From Patescibacteria group bacterium (lineage in GTDB: Bacteria > Patescibacteriota > Minisyncoccia > Minisyncoccales > JAHCRE01), in contig JAHCRF010000002.1 of NCBI GenBank assembly GCA_020148055.1, positions 28,138 to 92,137 of the forward strand: 64,000 nucleotides of DNA, read 5' to 3'. This document shows positions 210 through 64,000 of the stretch, one piece after another; positions within the stretch are counted from its first letter, which is position 1; each line of letters opens with the position of its first letter. A program made the translations under genes and the position numbers. Below the pieces are notes generated by a model. The model saw nothing but the letters and a program-made list of their open reading frames with translations, did not search any database and was not told the origin of the DNA.

Positions 210-716
210 TTAACGTTTCTGCCACTGAGGAGCTCTTCTCGCGCGCTTTAATCCAAATTTTTTTCTTTCTCTCATTCGAGGATCTCGAGTTAAGAAACCG
301 GCTCTTCGAAGACGTTTTCGATAATCGGGATTAAAGAGAATTAAAGCCCGAGCTATCCCATGTTTTATGGCTTCAGCTTGAGCATGAAGACCTCCACCTT
401 TTACTCTAACTGAAACTCTAAATCGATTAAGAGATTTCATTTTTTTTAATGAGGATTGGGCAACCTGCTGAAGTTCTAAAGTAGAAAAATAAATATTGAG
501 AGGTTTTTCATTAATCAAAACAGTTTTTTCTCCACGGGTAAAAAGACGAATCCTGGCCACTGCCGTTTTTCTTCGGCCAACTGCCTCAAAATACCTTTCC
601 TGAATTATCTTGGGTTTTTTAACTTTTTCTTTTGAAACTGCTTTTTTAACTTTGATTTTTTTTGTTTTTACCCTTTTTTGGGTTTTGGTTTTTTTTATTT
701 TTTTAGGTCTTGGCAT
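210..716 (-). CDS. rpsI: 30S ribosomal protein S9 with ~35-aa Lys-rich N-terminal extension
   Basis: [17 protein letters not shown]...[19 protein letters not shown]...[27 protein letters not shown]; follows rplM as in the canonical L13-S9 operon. Confidence 0.95.
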
Positions 717-9352: not shown

Positions 9353-10114
9353 TCAAGATTTAACTCTACTGACACTTCTGAGGATTTTAATAAACTCTCG
9401 TGGATTCAAAGAAGCCCCTCCAACTAGAAGTCCCTGGAAATTAGCTTCCCTTACATAATCTGTAGCATTTTTAGAATTCACGCTACCCCCATAAATTATC
9501 CTGAGATTTTCAGCGATACCACGTGAATATTTTTTGACTATCATTTTTCTAATGAGCAAACCCATTTTTTGAGCTTCTTCCACATTGCAAGGTTTTCCAG
9601 TTCCAATCGCCCAGACAGGTTCATAGGCGATTGTAATTTTTTTGATTTCCTTTTTTGAAATTTTTGGGAGGCCTTTTTCAATCTGAGATTTTAAAATACT
9701 CTGGGTCTGACCTTTTTCTCGTTCCTCTTTGGTCTCCCCAATACAAAAAATTGGATTTAATTTAACTGATATCGCAGCTTTTATTTTTCTATTTATTATT
9801 TCATCGGTCTCACCAAAATATCTTCTCCTCTCAGAATGACCTAAGATTGCATATTTGCAGCCAAGATTTAAGAGCTGTTTTGGCGAAACTTCACCAGTAA
9901 ATGGTCCTGCTTCCTTCCAAAAACAGTTCTGTCCGCCTAGTTTGATACTTGATACTTGATACTGGACACTTGATAAATAGGTAAATGGCGGGCAAATTAC
10001 TACCTCAACATTTCTTATTTTTTTTATTCCTCTTTTGGCCGAGTTAAAAAGCCGCTTAGCTTCAGCTGAACTTTGAGGATTCATCTTCCAGTTTGCGACA
10101 ATTAATGATTTCAT
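9353..10114 (-). CDS. tpiA: triosephosphate isomerase
   Basis: IVANWKMN, AILGHSERR, IAYEPVWAIGTGK, IIYGGSV. Confidence 0.92.
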   Translation of the reverse strand: MKSLIVANWKMNPQSSAEAKRLFNSAKRGIKKIRNVEVVICPPFTYLSSVQYQVSSIKLGGQNCFWKEAGPFTGEVSPKQLLNLGCKYAILGHSERRRYFGETDEIINRKIKAAISVKLNPIFCIGETKEEREKGQTQSILKSQIEKGLPKISKKEIKKITIAYEPVWAIGTGKPCNVEEAQKMGLLIRKMIVKKYSRGIAENLRIIYGGSVNSKNATDYVREANFQGLLVGGASLNPREFIKILRSVSRVKS

Positions 10115-57401: not shown

Positions 57402-58427
57402 CTAAAGGACTAAGGCTTTCTCTTTTCTCTTTTGTAAAAACTCTTTAAAAAACTCAAATACAATCCCAAAAAATGGAATAGCTAAAATTGCCCCCCAAAT
57501 TCCCCATAAAATTCCTCCAACTGTTAGAGCTAGCAATACTACAACTGGTGGCAAACCAATAAATTTTTTTGTTAAGGCCGGTAACAGGATATTATTTTCA
57601 ATCTGCTGAATTAAGATGAAGACAATTAATACAAAAATTGCCTGGAAAAAATTATCTAAACAAACTATCACAAAAATGATAATTCCAGTAATAATCGGCC
57701 CAACTATTGGCACAAAATTAAGGATACCCGCTAAAATTCCCAAGGAAAAAGGATATTTTGTATTAAAAAGAGAAAAAGCAACGAAGCTTGAAATTCCAAC
57801 AAAAAGACAACCAAAAATTCTTGATAAAAACCAACCGGAAACCCTGATTTTACATCTTGACCAAAGATCTAACAAAGAGGCTTCATATTTTTTGGGAAAA
57901 ATAAGGCTCAGAGCTTTTTGGATTGGTTTTTCTTCTAAAGAAAGAAAGAGGGAAATCGAAAAAATTGAAAGAGTTGCCAGAATTCCTCCAAAAATAGCAG
58001 CTATAGCACTAAAAACAGTGTCAGCCATTCTTTCCAGGTTTTTACTTAATAAATCTGTAAACTCTTCTATATTCTCAAAAGCTCGCAAACCAAGCGCTTT
58101 AAAAGGAGGAGAAATCTTTTCAAAATATTGGGGTAAAGCTTTTGTAAATTGACGAATCTCAGAAGTAAATATGGAAACAGTAAAATAAATCGAGAGAGCA
58201 ATTAATCCAAAGATAATGAAATAGACGAAAACAACCGAGATTAGTCTGGGGATTTTTCGTTTTGTTAAAAAATCAATTAAGGGTTCAAATAAGACCGAGA
58301 TTATTACAGCAAAGATAAACCAGATAAGAACATTTCTGATTAAATAAAGAAAATAAAGGCAAATAACAGCAAAAAGAATTTTAAAAATCGTCTCCCAGGA
58401 AATATCTAATAATTTTTCATTGTTCAT
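57402..58427 (-). CDS. AI-2E (PerM) family transporter
   Basis: 341 aa polytopic; ...IENNILLPALTKKFIGLPPVVVLLAL.. Confidence 0.8.
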   Translation of the reverse strand: MNNEKLLDISWETIFKILFAVICLYFLYLIRNVLIWFIFAVIISVLFEPLIDFLTKRKIPRLISVVFVYFIIFGLIALSIYFTVSIFTSEIRQFTKALPQYFEKISPPFKALGLRAFENIEEFTDLLSKNLERMADTVFSAIAAIFGGILATLSIFSISLFLSLEEKPIQKALSLIFPKKYEASLLDLWSRCKIRVSGWFLSRIFGCLFVGISSFVAFSLFNTKYPFSLGILAGILNFVPIVGPIITGIIIFVIVCLDNFFQAIFVLIVFILIQQIENNILLPALTKKFIGLPPVVVLLALTVGGILWGIWGAILAIPFFGIVFEFFKEFLQKRKEKALVL

Positions 58428-59689
58428 ATTCTTAAAAGTTTTTTGAATTTATTTTTATTTTTAAATGGGCCAATTAAACTTAAATTTAATTTTTGGGGCT
58501 GGAAGATATCTTTTGCTACCTTCAAAATATCAATCTGGCTAACTTTATCAATTTTTTTACATTCCTGCTCAGGAGTTGAAATTTTTCTTTTTAAAATCTC
58601 TTGACTTCCCAAAAAAGTTGCCCAGACATCAGAAGTTTCCAGGTTTAAATAAAGACGGCCCTTAATATTTTCCTTTGCTTTTTTAAGTTCTCTTTTGGAA
58701 ACTTTTTTTGTTTTAAGATTATTATATTCATTTAGAATAATTTTTATTGCCTCCTCAATTCTTTTATTATCTATCCCGGTATGAGTGACTAGGAAACCTG
58801 TATCAGTGTAATGTTCAGGAAGTGTTCTAATATAATAAGCTAAACTTCTTTTTTCCCGAACTTTTATAAAAAGCCGAGAACTCATAATTCCTCCTAAGAT
58901 TACTGACATCACAGCCAGGGGATATTTTTCTGGTTGAAATAAATCAAAAGTTCTAACTCCGAGACACAAATGAGTCTGATCAGTTTCTTTAAAATTAAGT
59001 AGAACTTGCGGCGAATTTTGAAGCTCTTTTGTTGGTTTTTTGGAAAATGGTTTGATTTTTTTAAATTTTCCAAAAAATCTTTTAATTTTTAAAATAGCTT
59101 CCTTTTCTTTAAAATTTCCAGCTAAAGAAATAATAATATTAGTTGGTATAAATTGTTTTTTAAAATAGTCCAGAATATTTTTTCTGGAAATTTTCTTAAC
59201 GGTTTCTTTTTCTCCGGAAATCAGCCAGCCAGCTGGTTGATCGCCATAAAGAAGTTTTTCCCAGAGATCTAAAACATATTTTGAGGGATTATCTTTCATC
59301 ATATTAATCTCCTCAAAAATCACTTTCTTTTCTTTTTTAATTTCTTCTTCTTTAAATAAAGAATTAAAAATCATATCTGATAAAACATCAGCCGCTAAAT
59401 CAAAATGGGATGCATCAACCTTAACCCAAAATCCCATCAATTCTTTGCCAGTGAAGGCGTTATAAATACCACCAACTCTATCTAATTCTTTGGCAATATC
59501 TATTGTTTGAGGCCTCTTTTTTGTTCCTTTGAAAGCCATATGTTCCAATAAATGGGAAAGGCCGGAGATTTCTTTTTTTTCATACTTTGAGCCAGTTGCG
59601 ACCAGAAGCAAAAGAGTCAAGGCTCTAGTGTTTTCCATAGGAAAAGTAATAATCCTCAGACCGTTTTTGAGAATGGTTTTTTTAAACAT
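58424..59689 (-). CDS. M16-family zinc peptidase
   Basis: GLSHLLEHMAFKGT (HxxEH). Met28 (59689) is preferred: the upstream 27 track codons (to 59770) cover a 10-bp GC hairpin. Confidence 0.85.
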   Translation of the reverse strand: MFKKTILKNGLRIITFPMENTRALTLLLLVATGSKYEKKEISGLSHLLEHMAFKGTKKRPQTIDIAKELDRVGGIYNAFTGKELMGFWVKVDASHFDLAADVLSDMIFNSLFKEEEIKKEKKVIFEEINMMKDNPSKYVLDLWEKLLYGDQPAGWLISGEKETVKKISRKNILDYFKKQFIPTNIIISLAGNFKEKEAILKIKRFFGKFKKIKPFSKKPTKELQNSPQVLLNFKETDQTHLCLGVRTFDLFQPEKYPLAVMSVILGGIMSSRLFIKVREKRSLAYYIRTLPEHYTDTGFLVTHTGIDNKRIEEAIKIILNEYNNLKTKKVSKRELKKAKENIKGRLYLNLETSDVWATFLGSQEILKRKISTPEQECKKIDKVSQIDILKVAKDIFQPQKLNLSLIGPFKNKNKFKKLLRI

Positions 59690-59726
59690 AGCTAATTTAA
59701 TTATAGTCGAAAATTTTCGAAATAGG

Positions 59727-59749
59727 AAGCGCCGCCGGGGGCGGCGCTT
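59727..59749. other. strong GC hairpin in the 5' region of the M16 peptidase gene
   Basis: AAGCGCCGCC-ggg-GGCGGCGCTT, 10 bp (8 G-C). It is preceded on the minus strand by U6, not followed by a U-tract. Confidence 0.5.
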
Positions 59750-59920
59750 AAAAAACCAAAAAGTATTCAAAACTTCAATTAAACAATGGATTTACTCTAT
59801 CATGGTCCATTAAATTTTAGAAAAGTCTCGGTCTTTCTATAAAGATCCAAATCTTGCTAAAAATCCTTAAATCATTTAATATAATATTAGCAATCTTAAC
59901 AACATAAGAGGTGATAGAAG

Positions 59921-60526
59921 GTGAGGAGATTAAAGAAGTTTGGATTAATTATGGCAGTGATTCTCTGTTGCTCTTTCGGTGTAATAATAGCCACTTATCC
60001 GGCCGAAATCCAGATAGCATTCAGTGATTCTTGGGAGACAGCTCGGAGTCTGGCAGAGAGAATAGCTAATCTAGGAAGAAAAACAGGTATTATTGAGAGA
60101 CTTACGAACGTAGTCACTGAAGATGAGACAAAAGAACATTCTTATCTGGCCACTTTACCCCATGAATTAGCCGAGAAGATCAAAGTAAGCTACAACTACC
60201 AAAAAGTCTATAGTGCAGAATGGGATGAGATTCAAGAAGAATACAAACCAAAAGTATTAACAGATATCCGATATGGAGGTTGGATAAAAAATCTTTCCAA
60301 TCAGACCATCGTAAAGATCCAATATGAAGTCATTATAAAAGACGTCAACGGGAACATCCTTACTTCTTCGGAAGAAGAAATTTGGACCGACACTTTGCCT
60401 GGACAGAAATGTTCTATTACGGGCGAGATATGGATAAAAGACGCCCTTGAGAAAGCCGGTATCAGTGCAACCGAGGACCCAACGCTCAAGATAGAAATGG
60501 TCGTAATATCAGTAAAGTTTGATTAA
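59921..60526 (+). CDS. hypothetical exported/membrane-anchored protein (201 aa, GTG start)
   Basis: Strong SD AAGAGGTGA 6 nt before the GTG; N-terminal hydrophobic segment FGLIMAVILCCSFGVIIA; terminator follows. Confidence 0.6.
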   Translation: MRRLKKFGLIMAVILCCSFGVIIATYPAEIQIAFSDSWETARSLAERIANLGRKTGIIERLTNVVTEDETKEHSYLATLPHELAEKIKVSYNYQKVYSAEWDEIQEEYKPKVLTDIRYGGWIKNLSNQTIVKIQYEVIIKDVNGNILTSSEEEIWTDTLPGQKCSITGEIWIKDALEKAGISATEDPTLKIEMVVISVKFD

Positions 60527-60532
60527 AATCAA

Positions 60533-60561
60533 ACCCTGCTAAAAGGCAGGGTCTTTATTTT
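60533..60561 (+). terminator. intrinsic terminator
   Basis: ACCCTGC-taaaag-GCAGGGT followed by CTTTATTTT. Confidence 0.7.
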
Positions 60562-60596
60562 AAAACACGCTTCTCATTTTCTACTTAGCTTATTTT

Positions 60597-61403
60597 CTAG
60601 TTACAGTTTTTATTTTCTTGAGCAATAGCCCATAATGCTAGGGATGTCGTATGAGGGCTATCAAACCAGCTTCCATTTTCTGCCTGGCAACGGAGAATAT
60701 TTTCAACCCAGGTTTCTTTTATTGAGTCACCAGCGTAACCGATAATTGCTGCTCGCTCAGCATAAATATCAAGATAGGAGGGATTGCAGAGATAAGGGAG
60801 GTTTTCTGATTCCCCTTCCTTATCCTGGATTATTGTTAAATCCTCGACTAACTCGTCTATCAAGGCATTTAAGATAATCTGATCATAACAACCCTTTTCT
60901 TTTATTATTGCCAGAGCTAAAAGAAGGTGAGCAGAACTATAGCTATCATCCCTCTCAATCTGATTTATATCTTCAAGAACATCTTTATAAGAAAACTTTT
61001 CACAATAGGTTGCCTTGGCAATCAGCCGAGTATTCAAATCAGGAATATTTTCCAGACCAGAAATGTCCTGATATTGATGAGTAGGGTAATAAAGCCGGTA
61101 TAAAAATTCTTGATCGCCAATATCTTCATCGATTTTTCTCTTCCATAAATCCTCTAATCTTTCATCTCTACATATTTCATTTAATTTCTTAATCAAGAAA
61201 GTTGTACCGCCAATAAATTTTTCATTTGTTGTTAAAAGAAAATTTATTCCTTTTTGAATAGGGGTTTCCTTTTCTGGCTGGGTTATTTTACCAAGGCTTT
61301 CAACCCGCCTCTCTAAATAATTCAATCCCAAAACAAACAAAACTCCAACTATTACAATACTTAATAGTAGAACAAAGATGAATTGTTTTTTATCCAATTT
61401 CAT
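60597..61403 (-). CDS. membrane-anchored hypothetical protein with one QW-type (QxxxGxW) repeat
   Basis: N-terminal helix FIFVLLLSIVIVGVLFVLGL; C-terminal ILRCQAENGSWFDSPHTTSLALWAI matches the QxxxGxW motif of alpha/alpha-toroid prenyltransferase/terpene-cyclase repeats (weak). Confidence 0.5.
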   Translation of the reverse strand: MKLDKKQFIFVLLLSIVIVGVLFVLGLNYLERRVESLGKITQPEKETPIQKGINFLLTTNEKFIGGTTFLIKKLNEICRDERLEDLWKRKIDEDIGDQEFLYRLYYPTHQYQDISGLENIPDLNTRLIAKATYCEKFSYKDVLEDINQIERDDSYSSAHLLLALAIIKEKGCYDQIILNALIDELVEDLTIIQDKEGESENLPYLCNPSYLDIYAERAAIIGYAGDSIKETWVENILRCQAENGSWFDSPHTTSLALWAIAQENKNCN

Positions 61404-61415
61404 TTTGAAGGGCCT

Positions 61416-63377
61416 TTATTGATTAACAGCAATTATGACAAGATTTCTTTGTCCAAGGACTGCTCTTGCTGAACCATCTCCTGTTCTATCAGAACCCTGA
61501 ATACGTATAGTATAGGTTCCCGGGCTAACTGCATAAGTACACATTGTCTGAAAATTATCTGCCCAGCGACCTCCTCCACCAGCAGCAGTTGGAGATTCGT
61601 GTTGTCGGACACTTCCAGAACAGGCAGTTCCACCTACAGTTATTCTATAGTAACCCCAACTATGAGGCTCGGCGAATTGGATGAATGGAACACTATCGTC
61701 GCGGTAATTAATTTGACCTGAAGCCCATATCATTAAGAGACTATTTTGAGTAACGGTTATACTTTTCCATAAATTCGGATCATTATAATAAGTCCCGGCA
61801 CCGTCGCTTTCTGGTATATCCCAGCCGCCTGTTTCTACATCGTATGCATATGGGGGTTTAAGACTAGTTATCCCATCTATCCTTGTCCCACCTTCAAAAT
61901 CTCCTGCATAGTTTACTACTAAAACATCACTGTTATCATGTACTAATGCCCTCTGATTTGGTTTTGAACCAATACTTCTGCCATCATTAAGACCCATTTT
62001 AAAATCTGAACCATCCATATATATCCAACCACCTAACTTGACATCACTATTAACTCTTATATTACCCGCAACTTGTAGTTTTTCTCCTGGACTCTCCGTC
62101 CCGATGCCAACGTTGCCGTTATCTCCAAAAATTAAACTACCATCTGAACCTAATCTGATTCCAGCTCGGTCGCTATTTTGCATTCCGTATATTCCAAGAG
62201 TATTGGCTACATCTATGTCCGTTAAATAACTATCGTCTCCGATGATGAGATTCTGGCCTCCAGCTGCGAATATATCCATTGCTCTTATTGTGCCAGAAAC
62301 ATCTAACTTATAGGTTGGACTGATTGTTCCAATGCCAACTTTCCAGGCAGTATTATTGGGATAGAGGTTTAAACCAGATTGGGTCCAATAACCTACTCCA
62401 CCAGAAGGCCAGGTATCCCGACAATCATCTTTCATACAAAGATAATTGGCTCTGATACTATTGTTTCCCCAGGTACCATCAGATTCTAAAACTCTAATTC
62501 CTGTTGAACCTCTAAAATCAATGTAGCCATTGTTGTAATCATAAAATCCACCATCATCTGAAATCCAGATACCACCGCCTCCAGTATTCCTTCTATTGGC
62601 ATAGAGCATGTCAGCATTTGAGCCTACCATTTCATAACCATCTACTTGAAATCCATTATCAGCTCGAACCATTTTATTAACATATATATCTTTATTACCG
62701 TATGAACGAATCCAAGTAGTATCTATCATATACCATCCACCACCATAAGTCTGTGAGTACCAACCTGTATTACCATAAGTTCTGACCCAACCGCCTCCAT
62801 CATCACGAAGAGTTCCTTCAGGAGCCACAATTGCTCCATCAACTCTCAAATTACCAGCTACATGCAATTTTTGAGCAGGACTAGTCGTCCCGATGCCGAC
62901 ATTCCAGGCAGTATTATTGGGATAGAGACGATCAGGAGCTGTAAAGTCCCAATAACCTGCTGCTGCTCCACTTTGATCTACTCCACAGATAATATCACCG
63001 GAAGCATTAGCATAGAGCTTACTGGTGATTGGATCTGAACAAGCATTAAGACCTGTAACCCGAACATTTCCAACCACATGAAGCCTTTGAGCTGGAGTGG
63101 TTGTTCCGATGCCAACCTTGCCTTGAAAGAGGGCAGAATAACCCCCAGCTCCACCAGCTGGATCAACCCACCAACTATTATCATTTGAGTCATAAAATGT
63201 TGGGAAAGAAAGCGTGCCAGTTTTAGTCTGGGCACCTCCACCAACATTTAAAGGAGCTGGAACATTCCCTCCTGGTGGACCGACTGCTGGCTCAGTCCAG
63301 GCAAGAACTAAGTAGCCAACCAAAAAACTCATTATTAAAACCCCTAAGATTAGGGCGAATGATTTTAGTTTAGACAT
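61416..63377 (-). CDS. large secreted repeat protein (tail-fibre-like VGIGT repeats)
   Basis: Signal/anchor FALILGVLIMSFLVGYLVLA|WTEP. Four copies of the (G/W)(K/N)VGIGTxxPxxxLxVxGNxRV motif. Gly/Asn/Trp/Tyr-rich beta-type sequence. Confidence 0.7.
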   Translation of the reverse strand: MSKLKSFALILGVLIMSFLVGYLVLAWTEPAVGPPGGNVPAPLNVGGGAQTKTGTLSFPTFYDSNDNSWWVDPAGGAGGYSALFQGKVGIGTTTPAQRLHVVGNVRVTGLNACSDPITSKLYANASGDIICGVDQSGAAAGYWDFTAPDRLYPNNTAWNVGIGTTSPAQKLHVAGNLRVDGAIVAPEGTLRDDGGGWVRTYGNTGWYSQTYGGGWYMIDTTWIRSYGNKDIYVNKMVRADNGFQVDGYEMVGSNADMLYANRRNTGGGGIWISDDGGFYDYNNGYIDFRGSTGIRVLESDGTWGNNSIRANYLCMKDDCRDTWPSGGVGYWTQSGLNLYPNNTAWKVGIGTISPTYKLDVSGTIRAMDIFAAGGQNLIIGDDSYLTDIDVANTLGIYGMQNSDRAGIRLGSDGSLIFGDNGNVGIGTESPGEKLQVAGNIRVNSDVKLGGWIYMDGSDFKMGLNDGRSIGSKPNQRALVHDNSDVLVVNYAGDFEGGTRIDGITSLKPPYAYDVETGGWDIPESDGAGTYYNDPNLWKSITVTQNSLLMIWASGQINYRDDSVPFIQFAEPHSWGYYRITVGGTACSGSVRQHESPTAAGGGGRWADNFQTMCTYAVSPGTYTIRIQGSDRTGDGSARAVLGQRNLVIIAVNQ

Positions 63378-63380
63378 ATT

Positions 63381-63464
63381 ATTAGATGTTAGATATTGGA
63401 TATTAGATGTTAGATGTAAAAGATAATATCAAACACCCAAGTATCAAATATCTAAGATTATTTG
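63381..63464. repeat. period-7 repeat hairpin upstream of the large secreted protein gene
   Basis: attagat/gttagat/attggat/attagat/gttagat versus ataatat/caaacac/ccaagta/tcaaata/tctaaga (gttagatattggatat vs cttagatatttgatac, 13 of 16). Confidence 0.55.
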
Positions 63465-63517
63465 ATTATATTTAGTTTACCATTTTTATTATAACACATT
63501 TAAAAAACAATGAAGCT

Positions 63518-63542
63518 AAAAAATCCCGCAAAATAGGCGGGG
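63518..63542 (-). terminator. intrinsic terminator after glyQS
   Basis: Minus strand CCCGC-cuauuuu-GCGGG followed by AUUUUUU. Confidence 0.6.
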
Positions 63543-63596
63543 AAAGGCTGTAAAATTTTAATCTTTTGTAATTGTTCCCTTGAACTTTTTCCAATT

Positions 63597-64000
63597 TTAG
63601 GAAGACAATTTTTCTTTTAAGACATCGATTAAATTTTCAACTTTTACTCTCTCCTGAGCCATTGTATCGCGATCACGGATTGTTAAATCGTCTTGTTTTA
63701 AACTCTCGAAATCAACAGTAAGAGCAAAAGGAACTCCTATTTCATCGATTCTGCGATATCTTCTCCCAATTGAACCAAGCTCATCGTATTGGCAGACAAA
63801 ATGGGGTTTTAATAATCGATAAACTTCTTTTGCTTTTTTCACTATTTTTGGTTTGTTTCTAACCAAAGGTAAAACTGCTACTTTAACTGGTGCTAATTTT
63901 TTGTGAATTTTCAATAAGATTTCTATTTCTTTTGCTGCCTTTGTTGTTTTTGTTCGACCTCCCTTTATTTCTTGGTAAGCGTCTGTTAGAAAAACAAAGA
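63597..64000 (-). CDS. glyQS: glycine--tRNA ligase (dimeric class II type), C-terminal anticodon-binding part; gene continues past window end
   Basis: APVKVAVLPL...DELGSIGRRYRRIDEIGVPFALTVDFES. The frame stays open upstream of the track start (TTG 63914) to position 64000 (..FVFLTDAYQEIKGGRTKTTKAAKEIEILL). Confidence 0.85.
   Translation of the reverse strand, partial: FVFLTDAYQEIKGGRTKTTKAAKEIEILLKIHKKLAPVKVAVLPLVRNKPKIVKKAKEVYRLLKPHFVCQYDELGSIGRRYRRIDEIGVPFALTVDFESLKQDDLTIRDRDTMAQERVKVENLIDVLKEKLSS

Follow-up and report, generated by a model that had tools for sequence, protein, structure and literature searches.

The region at positions 59921–63377 of the window, that is, of the whole 64,000-nucleotide stretch of contig JAHCRF010000002.1 from a Patescibacteria group bacterium, carries three genes named here after the lengths of their products, p653 and p268 on the minus strand and p201 on the plus strand (Table 1). 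Analysis of base composition, synteny and homologous loci indicated that this region is probably a chromosomal cell-surface fibre-adhesin module, which evolves fast and is held at this site, and not a recently imported island. It is very likely that the region represents a surface adhesin module with a compositional shift in G+C (guanine plus cytosine) content, and there are good grounds for regarding the pair of p653, the adhesin, and p268 as ancestral at this site. To our knowledge, every member of the Patescibacteria in culture lives on host cells to which it is attached, and the molecules of this contact beyond type IV pili are largely unknown. The region offers a candidate attachment module, consisting of a tail-fibre-like adhesin and two extracytoplasmic partner families.

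Base composition and ribosome-binding signals

Comparison with the rest of the window revealed that the region is its maximum in both G+C content and tetranucleotide usage. The G+C content is 0.399 versus 0.340 for the window and is not exceeded in any 3457-bp sliding window (mean 0.338, standard deviation 0.018), while the tetranucleotide distance of 0.042 versus 0.0156 ± 0.0044 marks the region as an outlier. Both checks had been proposed in an earlier sequence-only reading of this DNA, which described a G+C-richer island of three genes and suggested that it was horizontally acquired or fast-evolving, and within the window they bear out the shift. Some of the figures given there did not hold: the value of ~23% for a typical gene came from one 60-bp sample of a gene with a G+C content of 0.293 overall, typical genes lie at 0.31–0.38, and the stretch 59941–60000 has 38%, not 40%. 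The shift is also not uniform, and only p201 deviates beyond the amino-acid expectation.

Each gene was split by codon position, and its expected G+C content was calculated from its amino acids (aa) and the codon usage of the 64 other open reading frames (ORFs) of the window. The observed G+C content of p653 is 0.422 and the expected one 0.421 (z −0.1), with a G+C content at third codon positions (GC3) of 0.267. Its excess is located in codon positions 1 and 2 (0.509 and 0.486) and is caused by the amino-acid composition, which is rich in Gly (15.2% vs 6.9% in the background) and poor in Lys. The adhesin gene, 57% of the supposed island, is compositionally native, and the G+C excess is a by-product of an adhesin rich in Gly, Asp, Thr and Ala and poor in Lys. 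The adhesin of locus L096 likewise combines a G+C content of 0.399 with a GC3 of 0.226 (L- and P-numbers denote context loci and homologous proteins, respectively, and most of the context loci are metagenome contigs of 2–5 kb). For p268, the observed and expected values are 0.350 and 0.328 (z 1.5; GC3 0.292). The values for p201 are 0.398 and 0.350 (z 3.4), and its GC3 of 0.390, compared with a background of 0.263, is the highest among 67 ORFs, with the runner-up at 0.337. The deviation at synonymous sites across the whole region that would mark an island was not found, with GC3 z values of −0.5, 1.3 and 3.8 for p653, p268 and p201, respectively. The region is a cautionary case, in which a glycine-rich fibre protein alone can create a G+C 'island'.

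Shine-Dalgarno (SD) sequences are nearly unused in the window. The mean anti-SD duplex energy in the 25 nucleotides (nt) 5′ of 66 ORFs is −1.65 kcal/mol, and only three ORFs fall below −8. In this ranking p201 comes first (−12.7 kcal/mol), consistent with the unusually strong SD claimed for it earlier, and p653 comes 65th. The foreign-looking signals are confined to the p201 gene.

Synteny and evolution of the locus

The genes around the region are housekeeping genes, encoding an aminoacyl-tRNA synthetase (aaRS), an M16 peptidase and an AI-2E transporter. The closest relative of the M16 gene is found at L096/L009 (76% aa and 75% nt identity), where a ~170-aa transmembrane (TM) protein, a 575-aa adhesin, a 273-aa p268 homolog, M16 and AI-2E follow one another. 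Compared with this M16 identity, p268 is 45% identical to its L096 counterpart, the adhesin leader 57% and the remaining adhesin ~33%, so that evolution of the module is much faster than that of the flanking gene. The fast-evolving surface or attachment module envisaged by the sequence-only reading agrees with these identities, with the anchored products and with the tail-fibre- and PilV-type modules of p653.

The adhesin–p268 pair is kept next to M16 in L096/L009, and the two genes are also adjacent in L001/L002, L006/L007 and L008. In L096 p201 is missing: 860 bp of the window, holding the gene, its promoter and its terminator, correspond to 112 bp. With the pair present at the L096 site and only p201 polymorphic, the horizontally acquired three-gene island suggested earlier is not sustained. 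Amino-acid composition together with conserved synteny, which the earlier reading had named as the explanation that would speak against it, accounts for the p653–p268 operon and does not account for p201. These alignments suggest that the autonomous p201 cassette is the only part gained or lost at this site; a recent gain limited to the cassette is plausible, and loss in L096 is equally possible. Comparison of M16 with the GTDB species representatives was uninformative, since the best matches (43–47% identity, Levyibacteriota/Microgenomates) have no flanking gene in common with the window.

The gene for the conserved ~170-aa TM protein (..GEIGEPKEGE.P.IELP..I.NT..) is found ahead of adhesin paralogs at three loci, at 1–330 in L096, at 9408–9932 and 12503–13009 in L098 (the downstream copy is possibly related) and at 9484–9996 in L099, and is absent from the window. 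In L099, two adhesin paralogs lie in tandem and have the leader MS(K/E)IKSFTLILGVL in common.

p201 and its autonomous cassette

The p201 protein consists of an anchor or signal helix (aa 7–25), a helix with a/d heptads (aa ~37–62, consensus I-L-V-L-I-I-L) and a beta-sandwich (aa 75–201), which AlphaFold2 (AF2) modelled with a predicted local distance difference test (pLDDT) score above 90. The top Foldseek match in the PDB is SadB (4c47; E 4e-4, probability 1.0, 210 aligned columns), closely followed by sandwiches of DUF1425, ApaG, GH3 Fn3-like, UNC119 and SPOP-MATH. A search of PDB sequences with the p201 profile gave nothing significant and did not retrieve 4c47. Nine homologs were found, all metagenomic (P0128–P0132, L093–L095 and the near-identical P0127), and no relatives in the GTDB representatives or IMG/VR.

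Comparison of the homologous loci revealed a strict linkage between p201 and the adhesin. In all eight contexts with visible downstream DNA (8/8), the p201 gene faces, in convergent orientation, the 3′ end of a gene for a tail-fibre-like adhesin. The p268 gene lies between them in the window, L006/L007 and L008, and p201 directly abuts the adhesin gene in L010, L011, L012/L094, L093 and L095. The far flank varies, with M16, an IS200/RAYT-like gene, AbiEii or NTP_transf_2. The identities of p201 and of the adhesin C-terminal domain run roughly parallel, at 61/58% for L006, 50/51% for L010 and 36/39% for L008. A functional tie between p201 and the adhesin appears probable.

The expression cassette of p201, which includes a sigma-70 promoter, is kept upstream of its homologs at six other loci in unrelated contexts, with the consensus −35 TTGACA/TTGCTA, 17-nt spacer, −10 TAATAT, ATTAGCAAyCTTAACAACTAAATA, (G)GAGGTGA and a TTG, GTG or CTG start. 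The 17-mer of the p201 leader also has at least 119 exact matches in unrelated organisms among GTDB genomes; relatives of p201, p268 or p653 occur in none of the 80 loci listed, and these matches were attributed to chance. At every locus the GC3 of the p201 homolog exceeds that of the neighbouring genes, so the bias may belong to the gene itself, through expression or structure, and not to recent transfer.

A less probable, though substantial, alternative is that the p201 cassette alone was acquired horizontally and recently, through recombination with a related module of another lineage that possibly brought in the adhesin 3′ end and p268 as well. The clean indel against L096, the GC3 deviation and an SD unmatched in strength in this SD-poor genome are in line with such a transfer, as are the conserved promoter, leader and SD that the cassette carries with it, the mobile or defence genes often found at its far flank (RAYT-like, AbiEii, NTP_transf_2) and the different C-terminal-domain subtypes of the adhesin, A in the window and B in L096. 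However, the high GC3 recurs in the homologs at every locus, loss in the L096 lineage accounts for the indel equally well, and the boundaries carry neither repeats nor a recombinase.

Several contexts of p201 homologs have features of their own. In L006 (2340–2540) and L007 (2380–2437), four tandem ~12-nt repeats AAAATGGGGTCA and then an IS200/RAYT-like N-terminus MPRPLRITVPNLFFHILDRGNNRQIVF lie 5′ of the p201 homolog. The p201/adhesin pair abuts AbiEii and DUF6922 genes of toxin-antitoxin type in L010 (67–1037) and an NTP_transf_2/Polbeta gene in L011 (1–527), and such neighbours suggest that the module tends to occupy variable genome regions. L011 is labelled as a Thermoplasmatota archaeon; this contig of 2.8 kb may be misbinned.

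p653, a modular protein and probable fibre adhesin

Analysis of the p653 sequence showed a modular protein built of phage-tail-fibre-type and PilV-type segments (Table 1). The tail-fibre motifs, which at the DNA level are four 66-nt repeats, account for matches to the PHROG tail/tail-fibre families 3269, 9942 and 18345 (1e-12 to 1e-7). The PilV-type segment matches Pfam Shufflon_N (PF04917) at 1.6e-8 and 34.9 bits, above the threshold of 27.5, over profile positions 215–278 (64/324), and this segment recurs within P0002, P0003, P0005 and P0008. The search returned 2608 homologs, nearly all with partial coverage, in which the modules recur in varying order and number.

The N-terminal leader, in which AW(T/V)EP..PP.GNV.AP(I/L)NVG comes after a TM helix, is common to 30 of the top 120 homologs, including proteins labelled as Aerophobetes, Cyanobacteria and archaeal metagenome-assembled genomes. 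The p653 N-terminus, MSKLKS-FALILGVL, has Ser at −1 and Leu at +5 and lacks Gly-1 and Glu5; that of P0099 reads KSFTLI. A canonical prepilin helix starts with KG|FTLIELLV, of which the TM helix of p653 (KS|FALILGVL) seems to be a degenerate version. The canonical GF[TS]L.E signal was found in one of the top 120 homologs.

Among the top 120 homologs, only three have the C-terminal domain of ~160 residues, which is also encoded at the context loci. The domain occurs as subtype A in the window, P0011, P0022, L006, L008, L010 and L011 and as subtype B in P0014/L096, L093 and L012/L094. Searches of PDB sequences with p653 and with the profile of this domain gave nothing significant; the domain is presumed to be the receptor-binding tip.

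The name 'shufflon PilV' given to p653 by PGAP/NCBI is an over-annotation, as the protein fails all the defining tests save the short domain match. Independent display of the fibre, and not display on a type IV pilus, is slightly favoured. The main rival, which we regard as unlikely, places p653 at the tip of a type IV pilus as a minor-pilin-like subunit without Glu5, with the machinery encoded elsewhere and with p268 and p201 as pilus accessories. In L001/L002 the adhesin–p268 pair lies 37 nt after pilD, within a pilO-pilB-pilT-pilC-pilin cluster with further N_methyl pilin genes beyond. The leader is similar to a prepilin N-terminus in degenerate form (KS|F(A/T)LILGVL, with KSFTLI in P0099), Shufflon_N is matched, and P0014 bears an archaellin-like label from the Joint Genome Institute (JGI). 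Tip pilins such as GspK also lack Glu5. Against a pilus tip, both Gly-1 and Glu5 are missing, the GFTLxE signal is restricted to that single homolog in 120, and a Pro-rich stretch directly follows the helix, leaving no long alpha-1. Moreover, pilus genes are absent from the flanks of the locus, 59 kb within the window to one side and 10 kb to the other, as well as from L004, L096 and L098.

The type IV pilus cluster of L001/L002 also contains a gene for a bAvd-like protein of 117 aa (23S_rRNA_IVP/bAvd; L001 15369–15722, L002 6724–7077), located after a 1367-aa PKD/DUF2341 surface protein. This gene could point to a diversity-generating retroelement, or to what is left of one; the 20 kb seen contain no reverse transcriptase.

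p268, a predicted all-helical partner

The AF2 model of p268 (pLDDT 87.7) consists of a TM helix and an all-alpha ectodomain with 12–13 helices. The QW-type motif claimed for this protein earlier is real and present in one copy, QAENGSW (QX3GXW), followed by HTTxLALWA. Four Cys residues in the ectodomain are invariant in the close family, and C134, Y155, H159, C172, D212, E216, W246 and H251 are conserved family-wide. Five close homologs share 45–69% identity, and their genes lie directly 3′ of an adhesin gene wherever upstream DNA is visible. A profile search of 1.84 billion representatives yielded 268 relatives, mostly of 250–300 aa; none was found in the GTDB representative genomes or IMG/VR.

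The best Foldseek matches of p268 in the PDB are alpha/alpha toroids, and all of them are weak (E at least 0.8, probability at most 0.69, TM-score 0.50 for the best); they include a polysaccharide lyase (5noa), transcobalamin, the C5 thioester domain (TED) and GH105. The structure prediction and Foldseek comparison proposed earlier gave a confident model for p268, with no significant PDB match, and a confident beta-sandwich for p201, with SadB as its best PDB match. Comparison of the p268 model with the viral structures of BFVD gave nothing. DUF4735 is detected in 26 of 75 p268 relatives at E ≤0.01 (best 1.6e-9), and p268 itself reaches 14.1 bits (E 0.034), below the gathering threshold of 31.2 bits, indicating only a distant relationship. 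The p268 family profile touches the QW repeat of squalene-hopene/terpene cyclases in the PDB (E 1e-3 to 3e-2, weak), and the Prenyltrans and SQHop_cyclase models are each weakly matched by 1 of 75 relatives, with no Pfam match in p268 itself. Membership in the cyclase/prenyltransferase family was not established, given one QW-type motif and no significant model match, and a thioester domain was rejected on inspection, as the CxEQ motif is absent. A literature search for DUF4735 and for the AWTEP leader returned nothing relevant.

In P0151 (754 aa), a UbiA prenyltransferase (aa 265–481) is fused to a p268-family domain (aa 512–752). This fusion is a single hint tying the p268 family to membrane polyprenyl chemistry. 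The distant relative P0133 sits on a contig of 1.4 kb and yields no gene context.

Other explanations for the region

Acquisition of the whole three-gene block from a donor of higher G+C content is improbable. Such an island would agree with the compositional maximum of the window, with the foreign-looking GC3 and SD of p201, with the different upstream flanks (aaRS in the window versus the ~170-aa TM protein in L096) and with the greater similarity of p268 to non-syntenic homologs (64–69%) than to the syntenic L096 copy (45%). However, the G+C content of p653 is reproduced by its composition with native codon usage, its GC3 is native, and like the native genes it has no SD; the composition of p268 is in range. 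The pair stands beside M16 in the closest relative, whose adhesin is equally high in G+C and low in GC3, and integrase, tRNA and flanking repeats were not found. For p653 and p268, this explanation is largely refuted.

A pair resembling a polymorphic toxin system, with the C-terminal domain of p653 as a delivered effector and p201 as an exported immunity or neutralising protein, is very improbable. The strict linkage and roughly parallel divergence of the two, and the large modular protein with swappable C-termini, recall such systems, but the domain matches no toxin or enzyme family and, being beta-rich and containing Cys, resembles receptor-binding heads. An immunity gene normally follows its toxin gene directly and in the same direction, whereas p201 is convergent and has its own promoter; furthermore, L001/L002 have the C-terminal domain without p201.

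Least credible of all is a prophage remnant with p653 as tail-fibre gene and its neighbours as chaperones, which would explain the PHROG matches but not the lack of other phage genes, the flanking aaRS, M16 and AI-2E genes, the N-terminal membrane anchor of p653, the lack of p201 and p268 relatives in IMG/VR or BFVD and the conservation of the locus in a relative (L096). A shufflon or invertible segment was rejected, as the p201 gene is complete and has a promoter and a signal of its own, and sfx-like repeats and a recombinase are absent.

Gene layout and regulatory features

The three ORFs were found where the sequence-only reading had placed them, and all three products, which it had described as exported or anchored, are N-terminally anchored ectoproteins. 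In each of them a short N-terminus rich in K/R leads into one hydrophobic helix of ~20 residues, with no second TM segment, and an N-in, C-out topology is predicted. The p653 and p268 genes are separated by 12 nt without a terminator, in agreement with the proposed operon. The terminator assigned to p201 is present and has the form of a terminator on both strands, with a stem of 8 pairs (60533–60552) and a T-rich tail on the plus strand and a stem of 9 pairs (60554–60531) on the minus strand. The ends of the region are unmarked, as noted earlier: the nearest tRNA is more than 22 kb away, and no integrase and no flanking direct repeats were found. No Rfam family was detected in 59000–64000, where only sub-threshold noise appeared, and p653, p268 and p201 have no NCBIfam match.

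Table 1. Features of the region and of the p653 protein (positions in the window)
Feature	Position	Strand	Description
p201 gene	59921–60526	+	201 aa, GTG start
p268 gene	60597–61403	−	268 aa
p653 gene	61416–63377	−	653 aa
Segment replaced in L096	59731–60590		860 bp; indel and foreign-looking signals of the region are confined to this segment
p201 expression cassette	59854–59920	+	−35 TTGCTA (59854–59859), 17-nt spacer, −10 TAATAT (59877–59882)
p201 leader	59886–59903	+	ATTAGCAATCTTAACAAC
p201 SD	59906–59914	+	AAGAGGTGA, with 6 nt between it and the GTG start codon (59921)
Bidirectional intrinsic terminator	60531–60554	both	between the convergent p201 and p268 genes
p653 promoter and leader	63378–63496	−	extended −10 TGTTATAAT (63496–63488), ~100-nt leader
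p653 aa 1–45			N-terminal leader: K-rich n-region, 21-residue TM helix, AWTEP..PPGGNVPAPLNVG
p653 aa 89–103, 161–175, 348–362, 424–438			four tail-fibre motifs GIGTxxPxxKLxVxG
p653 aa 175–240	62658–62855	−	Shufflon_N-matching segment APEGTLRDDGGGWVRTYGNTGWYSQTYGGGWYMIDTTWIRSYGNK
p653 aa 240–330			module common to P0002, P0003, P0004 and P0017
p653 aa 495–653	61419–61895	−	Cys-containing C-terminal domain

The extended −10 element of the p653 promoter is perfect, and no SD precedes the p653 ATG. The leader contains the heptamer hairpin noticed in the sequence-only reading, which proved real: an array of 5.1 copies of an ACATCTA-type heptamer (63382–63417) forms one arm and pairs with the other at 63442–63458. 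As RNA, the hairpin has a free energy of −20.2 kcal/mol (z −4.4) and ends 11 nt before the ATG. The heptamer copy number is identical in an independent Logan assembly (L005), and the hairpin is not conserved 5′ of the adhesin homologs of L096 or L001. It may serve translational control or be a site of slipped-strand phase variation.

On the other side, the divergent promoter region is present, with a true extent of 59691–59920. The mechanical ORF 58424–59770 with its TTG start at 59770 overcalls the M16 peptidase, whose start is set by L096 homology at ATG 59690 (421 aa). A G+C-rich hairpin GCGCCGCC / GGCGGCGC is located at 59728–59750, where L096 has an operon terminator.

Proposed mechanism and significance

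These features suggest how the module might work. The p653 protein would be inserted N-in/C-out through the single TM helix of its leader and would form a fibre, probably trimeric like tail fibres, whose C-terminal domain at the tip may bind the surface of a host or partner. Co-transcribed with p653, p268 would be anchored alongside, and its toroid-like ectodomain with conserved His/Asp/Glu/His could bind or process a glycan or a lipid-linked ligand, or take part in fibre maturation. The p201 gene would be transcribed separately and, to judge by its signals, strongly. From its predicted structure and gene linkage, p201 may form coiled-coil oligomers that assist the fibre, or the C-terminal domain of p653, at the external face of the membrane; a role as a SadB-like assembly helper, proposed by analogy, is tentative.

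Several observations weigh against this interpretation of the locus. The p268 protein of L001 (69% identity) is nearer to the window copy than the syntenic L096 copy (45%), so that cassettes may have been exchanged by recombination within the module. Furthermore, p201 is absent from L001/L002 and L096, where adhesin and p268 are present, and p268 is absent from L010–L012, L093 and L095, so that neither accessory protein is obligatory. The eight linked contexts, mostly contigs of 2–5 kb that could be related to one another, may be less independent than they appear. The p268 model has no significant structure match in the PDB. As for p201, its coiled-coil region has a low pLDDT in the monomer model, and the SadB match is borderline, with a root mean square deviation of 22 Å over the whole chain, barely ahead of generic immunoglobulin (Ig)-like sandwiches. 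Comparison of the p201 family alignment with Escherichia coli YajI, a SadB paralog, by hhalign gave a probability of 0.7%, no lipobox [LVI][ASTVI][GAS]C was found in the alignment, and the p201 gene is convergent to the adhesin, not operonic as in sadBA.

A fast-evolving chromosomal adhesin module nevertheless remains our preferred interpretation, and its locus type, a rapidly diversifying adhesin with accessory genes, is familiar. The new elements are modest: two uncharacterised accessory families, the strict p201–adhesin linkage with a conserved autonomous cassette, an architecture resembling that of SadB in a setting other than type V secretion and a widespread degenerate-pilin leader. A bolder proposal, which we consider rather unlikely, is that the locus exemplifies a self-contained system for fibre display that has gone unrecognised in Patescibacteria and further uncultured lineages, comprising a large leader-defined adhesin class, a structural SadB analogue outside diderm type V secretion and a DUF4735-like toroid as accessories, and an autonomous helper cassette. 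In such a system, the constant convergent docking of the cassette at the adhesin 3′ end would suggest that the tip domain and the helper are exchanged together. Current concepts are unchanged, and the analysis mainly nominates families for structural and genetic work.

Comparison with known systems

PilV, the tip adhesin of the conjugative type IVb thin pili of IncI R64/TP114, is one source of likeness, as p653 contains its ~65-residue Gly/Trp/Tyr-rich segment. Both are surface adhesins with variable C-termini, and one p653 relative (L001) lies in a type IV pilus cluster. Unlike PilV, p653 matches only 64 of the 324 Shufflon_N positions and lacks the prepilin signal. Its locus has no Rci recombinase, no alternative C-terminal segments and, instead of sfx inverted repeats, only short imperfect ones of the kind expected by chance, and it is located in a chromosomal housekeeping context and not on a conjugative plasmid or in a pil operon.

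With phage tail fibres and receptor-binding proteins, p653 shares the four-copy motif, the exchangeable modules and the variable C-terminal domain. In contrast to them, it is a cellular gene product with an N-terminal anchor, has no phage neighbourhood and lacks a Peptidase_S74 chaperone domain in this copy. The p268 protein resembles the alpha/alpha-toroid QW proteins (squalene-hopene/terpene cyclases and prenyltransferase beta-subunits) in having one QX3GXW motif and 12–13 helices, but its ectodomain comprises only ~220 residues, with a single QW motif, and DxDD/DDxxD is not conserved.

Patescibacteria are not typical diderms, and p653 has no YadA-type beta-barrel anchor (no YadA_anchor match) and carries an N-terminal TM helix instead, unlike the trimeric autotransporter adhesin SadA. 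In Salmonella, the gene for SadB, a trimeric inner-membrane helper lipoprotein, neighbours that for SadA, and SadB improves the display of SadA at the cell surface (PMC3953254). Tight linkage to the gene for a fibre adhesin is also seen for p201, and the modelled protein shares with SadB (4C47) the membrane attachment, the N-terminal coiled coil and the C-terminal Ig/MATH-like beta-sandwich, a likeness that is architectural only. It differs in having a TM or signal anchor and no lipobox, in the lack of sequence homology and in a gene that is convergent with the adhesin gene and not its upstream operon partner. If p201 does act like SadB, it would represent a convergent solution for the assembly of a trimeric fibre on the outer face of the cytoplasmic membrane.

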